Origin: Geminicoccaceae bacterium
GTDB lineage: Bacteria > Pseudomonadota > Alphaproteobacteria > Geminicoccales > Geminicoccaceae
Assembly (NCBI GenBank): GCA_965217265.1
Contig: CBDCHP010000013.1
Coordinates: 61,709-125,708, forward strand
Length of the DNA stretch: 64,000 bases
Reading direction: 5' to 3'
Shown here piece after piece: positions 33,303-34,941 of this stretch. Under the pieces are notes generated by a model, which searched no databases, had not been told where the DNA came from, and saw only the letters and a program-made list of their open reading frames with translations. The position numbers and the translations under genes were made by a program. Numbering within the stretch: the stretch's first letter is position 1; each line of letters opens with the position of its first letter.

Positions 33303-34226
33303 CTATTCGGCCGCTTGGAGTTTTGCCGCGCGGTTGCCCCGCAGCCGCTCGAAATCGGCGCCGGCGTGGTAGGAGGAGCGGGTCAAGGGCGAGGCCGAGA
33401 CCATGAGAAAACCCTTGGCTCGCGCGGCCTTGGCGTAGACCTCGAACTCGTCTGGGTGGACGAAGCGCTCGACGGCGTGGTGGCGTGGCGTCGGCTGCAG
33501 GTACTGGCCAACGGTTAGGAAGTCGATGTCGGCCGAGCGCATGTCGTCCATGACCTGCAAGACCTCGCGCTTCTCCTCCCCTAAGCCCACCATGATGCCG
33601 GACTTGGTGAACAGCGACGGGTCGATCTCCTTGACCCGCTGCAAGAGCCGCAGCGAGTGGAAGTAGCGTGCGCCCGGCCGCACGGTGCGGTACAGGCGCG
33701 GCACGGTCTCAAGGTTATGGTTGAAGACGTCGGGCCCGGCCTCGACCACGCGCGCTAGGGCACTCTCCGGCTTGCGCAGGAAATCGGGGGTGAGGATCTC
33801 GATCGTCGTTCGCGGCCGCGCGGCGCGGATCGCCTCGATGCAGCGCACGAATTGCGAGGCCCCCCCGTCGGCCAAGTCGTCGCGATCGACCGAAGTGATG
33901 ACGACGTGCTCCAGGCCCATCGTCGCCACGACCTCGGCCAAGTGCGCCGGCTCGTTCGGATCGACGCTGTTGGGACGCCCGGTCTTGACGTTGCAAAAGG
34001 CGCAGGCGCGGGTGCAGGTGTCGCCCAAGATCATCACGGTCGCGTGCTTTTGCGTCCAGCACTCGCCGATGTTGGGGCAGGCCGCCTCCTCGCAGACCGT
34101 GCGCAGGTTCTTCTCGCGCATCAGGCGGCGGGTAGCGTGGTAACCCTCGGATGTCGGCGCCTTGACGCGGATCCAAGCGGGCTTCGGCCGACGGGGCGTC
34201 GTCGGGTTAAGGGTGATGGTGGTCAT
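33303..34226 (-). CDS. lipA: lipoyl synthase
   Basis: [13 protein letters not shown] and radical-SAM [10 protein letters not shown] cysteine motifs. Confidence 0.96.
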
Positions 34227-34531
34227 GGTGCCTTCGTACGCCGTTCTTTAGAGGCGAGCGTGAGGTTGCTTGGCAGGATCGTCGAATCGTCGGTGATAGC
34301 TTCCCGCAACTGCTCGATAGTAAGGTTGCGCGCCCCGCTTAAATCGGCACCGCGCAAAATAGTTCCTTTAAGATTAGCATTCTTAAAATTGGCGCCACGG
34401 AAAATAGCATTTGTAGCATCTGCTTTTGATAAGTTAGCATCCTCAAGATTAGCATAACTTAAATCAGTACGTCGGACAAACGCACCTTGGATATTCAAGA
34501 TCAACCGTTCAGGTGCCACTTCCTTGTTCAT
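34223..34531 (-). CDS. pentapeptide-repeat protein (102 aa)
   Basis: Consecutive A(D/N)LxX pentapeptides: [50 protein letters not shown] overlaps at both ends. AT-rich relative to its flanks. Confidence 0.75.
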
Positions 34532-34941
34532 AGATCGTCTTTCGTCTGCGCTGCCAAGATCCTGGTGATCTCGTTTACGTCTGCCGGTGGTTCCTTATCG
34601 CCATAATCTACTAGATTCTCTCTCAAAAAGGCACTGAGCAACTCAAACACCGCCGGGTTAAGAGCGGGAAAATCCTGCGCAATGCGTCGCAACGTATAGA
34701 TTGCCCCCAACCTGACGTGCAGCTTCTCGTCGGCAAGCTGTCCAACTGCCCGATTGAACAGTTCCGAAAACTGCTCTCGACCAGCGAGCCGCGACTGCTC
34801 TAAGGCCGCCTCGGCCTGCCGGTTTGCTGCCTGCACACGAAAGCCTGCAAAGACCAAGGCAATGAATCCAGCAGCGACGAGGCCGATATTGCGCACGATC
34901 TCCGAGACGGCCTGCCAAAAGGCAAGATCTATCCCGATCAA
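34528..34941 (-). CDS. membrane-anchored hypothetical protein, resembling the N-terminal module of long pentapeptide-repeat proteins
   Basis: TTG 34941 overlaps the lpdA stop (TTGA). One TM helix (IVRNIGLVAAGFIALVFAGF), a helical segment, then VRLGAIYTLRRIAQDFP...LLSAFLREN. AT-rich. Confidence 0.6.
   Translation of the reverse strand: MIGIDLAFWQAVSEIVRNIGLVAAGFIALVFAGFRVQAANRQAEAALEQSRLAGREQFSELFNRAVGQLADEKLHVRLGAIYTLRRIAQDFPALNPAVFELLSAFLRENLVDYGDKEPPADVNEITRILAAQTKDDL

Follow-up and report, generated by a model that had tools for sequence, protein, structure and literature searches.

Why should two short, AT-rich genes lie between the genes for dihydrolipoyl dehydrogenase (lpdA, the E3 component) and lipoyl synthase (lipA), joined to both without spare DNA? 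The question is raised by a 64,000-nucleotide stretch of a Geminicoccaceae bacterium (GenBank assembly GCA_965217265.1, contig CBDCHP010000013.1, positions 61,709 to 125,708 of the forward strand; hereafter the window), in which gene A, for a putative membrane anchor, and gene B, for a pentapeptide-repeat protein (PRP), occupy this position. The initial annotation, made from the sequence alone, took them for a foreign insert spliced into a pyruvate dehydrogenase (PDH) operon and considered that they might be one gene split by a frameshift. Our comparative analysis points to an old pair, inherited mostly vertically, whose AT-richness is a family-wide trait and whose constant neighbour is the E3 gene. 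The explanation that we favour as a whole, with a probability of about 0.6, is that of an old, translationally coupled pair made at low level, which would present a membrane-tethered B surface to an E3-linked client. The genes concerned and their junctions are:

lpdA, 34938-36341, minus strand: dihydrolipoyl dehydrogenase (E3), with Pfam domains Pyr_redox_2 and Pyr_redox_dim
TTGA junction, 34938-34941, minus strand: the TTG start of A overlaps the TGA stop of lpdA; the plus strand reads TCAA
Gene A, 34528-34941, minus strand: 137 aa, TTG start, taken from the list of open reading frames (ORFs)
ATGA junction, 34528-34531, minus strand: the start of B overlaps the stop of A; the plus strand reads TCAT
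Gene B, 34223-34531, minus strand: 102 aa, ATG start, taken from the same list
ATGA junction, 34223-34226, minus strand: the ATG start of lipA overlaps the TGA stop of B; the plus strand reads TCAT
lipA, 33303-34226, minus strand: lipoyl synthase, with Pfam domains Radical_SAM and LIAS_N

The low G+C content of the two ORFs relative to their neighbours, which first drew attention to them, is confirmed. The base counts originally given are exact (22 G+C of 60 at 34381-34440 against 42 of 60 at 34141-34200), and the A-B stretch contains the lowest-GC 300 nt of the 64 kb, at 0.43 against a mean of 0.682 (standard deviation 0.047, z = -5.4). With 44 genes of the window as the reference, A reaches a codon adaptation index (CAI) of 0.325 (z -6.7) and B one of 0.228 (z -8.4). 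Of the codons of A 25% are rare, and of those of B 36%, whereas the reference genes average 5%, with a maximum of 12%. Among the stretches outside typical genes with high G+C at third codon positions (GC3), just two are compositionally odd, namely A-B (GC 0.52) and 49537-50675 (GC 0.58).

This anomaly recurs far beyond the window. Scanning of a single genome for each species yielded 80 loci, and GC3 is lower than in the flanking genes for A in 79 of 79 loci and for B in 76 of 77, with a mean deficit of 0.22; the window pair shows the second most extreme deficit of 75 loci. Across loci, the GC3 of A-B follows that of the host with a slope of 0.82 (r 0.70), and the pair and its flanks differ by just 0.015 in their GC content at the first two codon positions. 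Because the AT-richness is entirely synonymous and repeated in nearly every host, it is a property of the A-B family and not a sign of recent transfer. One locus alone clearly departs from this pattern, namely the sister locus L016, where GC3 is 0.94 in A and 0.96 in B, the window having 0.62 and 0.45. GC3 is not depressed either in a single-chain relative on a Saccharothrix plasmid (0.85, its neighbours having 0.69-0.84). The low GC3 might be caused by selection for weak translation, by a weaker effect of GC-biased gene conversion where the sequence diverges fast, or by a role at the RNA level.

Genomic contexts, tallied over 85 loci, fall into a small number of placements (MAG, metagenome-assembled genome):

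Directly after lpdA: about 50 of the 85 loci, with lipA next in 38; Geminicoccaceae, Magnetospirillum, Xanthobacteraceae, Beijerinckiaceae/Methylocella, Roseitalea, Parvibaculaceae, Rhodobiaceae and others
lpdA upstream and another gene downstream: DUF188, ABC_trans_aux or Transgly_assoc
Between sucB and the lpd gene of 2-oxoglutarate dehydrogenase (OGDH): about 22 loci; Bradyrhizobium, Rhodopseudomonas, Methylobacterium, Amorphus, Aurantimonas and others
Between ftsK and lolA: 7 loci; Methylocystis and Methylosinus
Between the genes for the alpha and beta subunits of a Rieske ring-hydroxylating dioxygenase: locus L060, 4911-5679; a Devosia MAG
Directly after a gene for class II 3-deoxy-D-arabino-heptulosonate 7-phosphate (DAHP) synthase, in the order DAHP synthase-nadE: loci L076 and L079; two Hyphomicrobiales

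The downstream gene is other than lipA in loci L005, L008, L010, L019, L039 and L091. It is an E3 gene, either lpdA or the OGDH lpd, and not lipA that constantly adjoins the pair, which refines the initial remark that no reason was known for such a protein to be wired into the lipoate/PDH operon. Two loci reached by a separate route (L090 and L091) display the lpdA-A-B arrangement again, and the closest relatives of the window are Geminicoccaceae MAGs. One Xanthobacteraceae MAG (SMAG_U7619) carries two pairs (L053 and L065), one upstream of lipA and the other between sucB and lpd; since each groups with copies from the same context and not with the other, their sequences indicate old paralogues. 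All loci of the scan are alphaproteobacterial save two, in MAGs that are probably mis-binned. These two, L040 (Zixiibacteriota) and L046 (Gemmatimonas), show the lpdA-A-B-lipA or sucB-A-B-lpd gene order typical of Alphaproteobacteria; in the A+B tree L040 is almost the same as the Roseitalea locus L083, and binning contamination is likely for both.

That the pair is an insertion in the comparative sense is borne out by relatives that lack it. The lpdA-lipA site is empty in Benzoatithermus flavus (L087), where just 4 nt lie between the lpdA stop and the lipA start. Another insert occupies the same site in Marinimicrococcus flavescens (L088, 2271-3312) and Geminicoccaceae bacterium 1502E (L089, 2271-3375); it consists of two unrelated ORFs on the opposite strand (161 and 183/204 aa), which contain hydrophobic segments, match no Pfam family and have a normal GC3 of 0.85-0.90. 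The lpdA-lipA junction appears to tolerate repeated insertions.

The descent of the pair was followed in a neighbour-joining tree of A+B, built from short proteins without support values. In this tree all sucB/lpd copies form one clade, which is derived, the ftsK/lolA copies form one clade nested among lpdA/lipA copies of Hyphomicrobiales, and the remaining copies are grouped by the taxon of their host. L016 (Geminicoccaceae bacterium HKST-UBA17, with the pair at 3185-3888) is placed as the sister of the window and also has the lpdA most similar to that of the window (90% identity). Identity between these two loci is only 59% for A and only 52% for B; there has been a large codon-usage shift or an allele replacement within this clade, synonymous sites at that distance being probably saturated. 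Closer to the window stands L001, an independent assembly with 94-97% identity, and here the ratio of nonsynonymous to synonymous substitution rates (dN/dS) is 0.146 for A and for B, compared with 0.149 for pdhA and 0.132 for pdhC, while the synonymous distance (dS) is 0.20 for A, 0.12 for B and 0.11-0.26 for the flanking genes. A dN/dS of 0.146 and a dS within the range of the flanks argue that A and B are real coding genes under purifying selection, inherited together with their neighbours. Taken over all loci, the A-B pair is old and mostly vertically inherited, occasional exchange being possible.

The division into two genes is as persistent as their location. Wherever a contig end does not truncate the locus, B lies directly behind A in essentially all cases, with the 4-nt ATGA overlap in 38 of 79 loci and overlaps of other lengths in about 25 more. 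A and B occur as a single ORF in just one locus of the genome scan, and the product, P0002, retains the initiator Met of B inside its linker. Amino acid identities of A and B covary (rho 0.46), the correlation with lpdA being only 0.28 for A and 0.21 for B. All three 4-nt overlaps reported by the initial annotation (TTGA, ATGA and ATGA) are read from the sequence, and a Shine-Dalgarno-like GGGAGGG lies within lpdA, 10 nt upstream of the TTG of A. Most loci have a spacing of -4 to +24 nt from the upstream gene to A; the ATGA overlap of B with lipA is found also in L001, L016 and L021, most other loci having a gap of at most 40 nt. Lying a few nucleotides behind its upstream gene, the pair has no room for a promoter of its own. 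A scan for promoters and terminators gave no convincing element inside the A-B stretch, where the sole promoter-like site is on the opposite strand and the number is no higher than expected by chance, and a search of the entire window against Rfam at gathering thresholds gave no match, with one chance-level hit near the A-B locus.

Single-chain relatives nevertheless exist at greater distance, and they place A in a large family. A search with the concatenated A+B sequence returned 607 homologues, mostly alphaproteobacterial A-like proteins of about 131-135 aa, with a few fused chains; some of the fused homologues bear the generic Joint Genome Institute name 'YjbI'. A profile of A matched 11,823 clusters at E<=1e-3 and 1,496 clusters (at 50% identity) at E<=1e-10, the closest being about 130 aa long and the distant ones 270-485 aa, with long PRPs matched at E about 1e-20. 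In 10 of 10 long homologues sampled, the Pfam Pentapeptide domain follows the A-module on its C-terminal side. A tblastn search of plasmids with A found 38 records, mostly from Streptomyces, Nocardia and cyanobacteria (e.g. Anabaena), and nearly all of the 30 rows listed are annotated as pentapeptide repeat-containing protein. The resemblance of A to the N-terminal module of single-chain PRPs, which the initial annotation had put forward, is thus well founded: A is homologous to the N-terminal module of a large single-chain pentapeptide-repeat family. The alphaproteobacterial pair is a natural two-part version of an architecture composed of a transmembrane (TM) helix, a stalk, a HEAT-like domain and a beta-helix.

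The proposed architecture of a membrane anchor followed by a pentapeptide-repeat protein also holds, with a TM helix in A and PF00805 in B. In A, a short N-terminal tail precedes a TM helix (about residues 15-35), and this is followed by a long juxtamembrane helix, the stalk, and by about three more helices. The hydrophobic helix at residues 15-33 reaches a Kyte-Doolittle 19-residue mean of 1.96, and the AlphaFold2 (AF2) model of the window protein, with a predicted local distance difference test score (pLDDT) of 86.8, has helices at 6-69, 74-90, 92-108 and 120-136. The family alignment has 15 invariant columns; the stalk bears a near-invariant RVxAANRQAEA motif, and the helical domain contains the conserved stretches ELFNRAVGQL...VRLGAIYTLRxI...DFPxL. 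Neither Pfam nor NCBIfam assigned A to a family, the only match being a weak one to HEAT_EZ (E 0.1, 13.7 bits, cutoff 27). A matched the HEAT-like AlphaRep at E 5e-4 over just 24 residues, and Foldseek with A alone gave a best E of 0.04, to helical repeats of COPI, TOG and symplekin, with none at E<=1e-3. The helical domain of A is putatively HEAT-like, its HEAT/ARM/TOG-like matches being weak. Four Arg residues follow the TM helix and one precedes it, and B has no recognizable signal peptide; for these reasons the soluble parts are predicted to be cytoplasmic, with A anchored in the membrane and its helical domain on the cytoplasmic side.

B matches Pfam PF00805 (Pentapeptide) with 59.2 bits, well above the gathering cutoff of 20.2, and contains about 11 in-register pentapeptide repeats, followed by a C-terminal helical cap and a tail. 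It has an isoelectric point (pI) of 9.6 and a net charge of +2.5, with a neutral repeat core, and no hydrophobic N-terminus as judged from hydropathy (maximum Kyte-Doolittle 19-residue mean 0.28). Sequence matches of B in the PDB are designed PRPs, HetL and Np275/276. The fused homologue P0002 is 65% identical to B over the repeats, and its AF2 model (overall pLDDT 89.9) has the same N-module as A, then a low-confidence linker, then regular 5-residue rungs at 145-203 with pLDDT >90 and C-terminal helices after them. Foldseek aligned the beta-helix of P0002 with MfpA, Rfr23 and Np275 at a probability of 1.0, and also with Alr5209. B is therefore predicted, from the model of its homologue, to be a right-handed quadrilateral beta-helix of the pentapeptide-repeat (Rfr) class. 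We considered a DNA mimic or gyrase protector of the Qnr/MfpA type, which is ruled out by the small size, the basic charge and the low scores of B (NCBIfam Qnr 22.4 bits, cutoff 240; MfpA 21.4, cutoff 360). The best NCBIfam matches of B are HetL (58 bits, cutoff 260) and Alr5209 (49 bits, cutoff 125), both below equivalog level.

Based on the above data, we propose the following mechanism for the pair. Ribosomes that end translation of lpdA would start again at the TTG of A, which overlaps the lpdA stop codon, and would do so twice more, at the ATGA of B and at that of lipA, and the load of rare codons would hold the output of A and B low. A would enter the inner membrane so that its short N-terminus faces outward and its stalk and HEAT-like domain lie in the cytoplasm, where it would display B, a short, basic beta-helix, at the membrane as a rigid protein-binding surface. 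The probable client would be E3 or the 2-oxoacid dehydrogenase complexes, which might, for example, be tethered or organised at the membrane; these are the likeliest partner because both of the separate, long-retained placements adjoin E3 genes.

Several observations weigh against this proposal. The functional link to E3 is weak: the association amounts to only two independent placements (after lpdA and before the OGDH lpd), and the ftsK-lolA, Rieske alpha-beta and DAHP synthase-nadE placements are unrelated to E3. Relatives can do without the pair in PDH and lipoylation, as is evident from the empty site of B. flavus and the different insert of Marinimicrococcus. AF2 gave no confident docking of the two domains in the fused homologue (predicted template modelling score 0.47, linker pLDDT <50). 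On the side of inheritance, the correlations of A and B identity with lpdA are weak, and the tree has the limits given above. Lastly, the high GC3 of L016 means that rare codons are not obligatory for the pair.

Two explanations would make the pair an accident of this genome. A recent horizontal transfer of an AT-rich two-gene cassette from a low-GC donor is very unlikely, even though it would account for the lowest-GC stretch of the window, for the CAI values and for the empty site in a relative; the contrast in L016 between a well-conserved lpdA and divergent A and B, with GC3 values far apart, could also be explained by allele replacement. The same pair, with the same composition, is conserved at the lpdA/lipA junction (about 50 loci follow lpdA, in many families, GC3 being depressed in nearly all), which is what the initial annotation had named beforehand as evidence against a recent insert, and its claim of recent, foreign origin is largely refuted even as its insertion stands. 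In addition, A-B GC3 scales with that of the host, the tree tracks taxonomy at the level that it resolves, with the window as sister to L016, and dS relative to L001 is the same as for the flanks. Each border is a 4-nt overlap without spare DNA, and a search there for an integrase, a tRNA, terminal repeats or a target duplication gave only short repeats of chance quality; no relatives of A were found in phage records or viral contigs. A single gene split by a frameshift, through sequencing error or as a pseudogene, is less credible still and has in its favour the existence of single-chain homologues, which include P0002, others and all the distant relatives. The independent assembly L001 has the identical split and overlaps, the ATGA overlap is widespread and the fused form is confined to a single scan locus, and both halves are under purifying selection. 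Of the two options initially left open, the natural two-part form is the one that stands. A frameshifted pseudogene is ruled out by the conservation of the split.

The remaining explanations concern what the pair does. It might be a selfish, promoterless operon hitchhiker whose role, if any, is unrelated to PDH or OGDH, the adjacency to E3 being a historical accident. Such an element would explain why the pair occurs at six or more places in operons, each time a few nucleotides downstream of a conserved gene, why it is patchily present among relatives and present twice in one MAG, why it keeps a non-host codon usage typical of accessory genes, and why its distant single-chain relatives on plasmids adjoin integrases and Abi genes. 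We consider it unlikely, given that both proteins are under purifying selection, that the context clades are monophyletic and track taxonomy, so that relocations are rare, and that two independent placements by E3 paralogues are improbable by chance; moreover, the pair has neither transposition or recombination machinery nor terminal repeats. PADLOC gave no defence match for A, B or the fused homologues, and neither A nor B has a toxin or antitoxin Pfam domain. At the other extreme, the pair might be a dedicated, previously unrecognised accessory subunit of PDH and OGDH that tethers E3 or the complexes to the membrane, with rare codons selected to fix the low stoichiometry of the pair and of the coupled downstream gene; this stronger form of our proposal strikes us as quite improbable. 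Slightly less probable again is an effect in cis, by which DNA or RNA (through translational attenuation, RNase E entry or the binding of a silencer to AT-rich sequence) would set the ratio of the dehydrogenase to the downstream gene, lipA here and lpd in the suc operon. The genes downstream in dehydrogenase operons are usually needed in lower amounts than those upstream because of complex stoichiometry, which counts for such an effect, as do the purely synonymous nature of the anomaly, conserved in 76-79 loci, and the three coupling overlaps, owing to which the flow of ribosomes to lipA crosses two rare-codon ORFs. A spacer would, however, have no need of the strong protein conservation observed (dN/dS 0.15 and invariant motifs), GC3 is normal in L016, and the segment has no Rfam family and no convincing terminator or promoter.

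Several known systems resemble parts of the pair proposed here to be old, coupled and membrane-tethered. The single-chain PRPs of Actinobacteria and Cyanobacteria (UJW36925.1 of Saccharothrix sp. AJ9571; WP_015217880.1 of Anabaena cylindrica PCC 7122) have the same N-module, with 30-49% identity to A, and share the TM helix, an ANRQ-like stalk motif and HEAT-like repeats, followed by pentapeptide repeats. They differ in being single polypeptides of 260-485 aa, in which the repeat arrays are longer and for which pentapeptide repeat-containing protein is the sole annotation, and many are plasmid-borne, next to integrases or Abi genes, whereas the window pair is split and lies inside a central-metabolism operon. 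MfpA, Qnr and AlbG have the same beta-helix fold (Foldseek 2bm6 and 6zt4, probability 1.0, with the homologue model); they have about 8 coils and are strongly acidic, in contrast to the roughly 3 coils and pI of 9.6 of B, which comes with a membrane-anchor partner. Np275/Np276 of Nostoc punctiforme (PDB 2j8i and 2j8k), which B matches in sequence and fold, likewise include a small PRP in a two-gene unit, but there both genes encode repeat proteins, whereas the partner of B is a TM/HEAT-like anchor. HetL and Alr5209, which B matches best in NCBIfam, lack an anchor partner and occur in another genomic context. YjbI/PerA of Caulobacter crescentus (CCNA_01968) is a secreted PRP with its own regulated promoter (PMC12864828). 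Like B it is an alphaproteobacterial PRP, acting at the cell envelope and not on gyrase (PMC12864828); unlike it, B has no signal peptide, depends on an anchor and is encoded in an lpdA operon.

A full-text literature search found no description of the A-B pair or of PRPs in pdh or suc operons. The Rfr beta-helix fold class is well known; what is new here is the split, operon-embedded, E3-adjacent form of PRP, its undescribed N-terminal module and the persistent codon anomaly. This anomaly is a caution for genome scanning, as a deviation as extreme as z about -5 to -8 belongs to an old, mostly vertical resident of about 76 lineages; the equation of AT-rich with recently transferred fails, and therefore another force must maintain the deviation. 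The analysis also defines a protein module, the N-terminal TM/stalk/HEAT-like domain of many PRPs, for which Pfam has no model although at least 1,496 clusters at 50% identity match it at E<=1e-10. To our knowledge, the role of most pentapeptide-repeat proteins has yet to be established, and the adjacency to E3 in both PDH and OGDH operons provides a testable lead to function for one class of them.

The pair is flanked by the following further genes of the window:

pdhA, 39512-40525, minus strand
pdhB, 38044-39450, minus strand
pdhC/E2, 36516-38015, minus strand
SRPBCC/Polyketide_cyc gene (assigned by Pfam; RatA/COQ10-like), 32796-33287, minus strand: 15 nt past lipA

The probable start of lpdA is the ATG at 36341 (MAEQTF...), the open frame reaching 36437, and its counterpart in L001 is called as 467 aa. 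Because about 175 nt separate pdhC from this start, the transcription unit may begin at lpdA rather than include pdhABC. Past the SRPBCC gene, at 32144-32795, there are terminator-like hairpins and then a convergent CinA-like gene, and the gene order lipA-SRPBCC-cinA-ispDF is kept in L001 and L090.

The second lowest GC of the window is found at 49537-50675 (0.46 at 49751 and 0.58 over 1.1 kb), directly after a trpE-like gene (48034-49536). A 179-aa ORF within this stretch has no Pfam hit and is unlike coding sequence, and a 73-aa ORF at 49776-49997 contains RTX-like GGxGxD calcium-binding repeats (GTSGADTLYGTSGNDDIEGRGGYDRMYGGNGDDG). The sequence suggests a fragmented or frameshifted, AT-richer gene of the RTX type.

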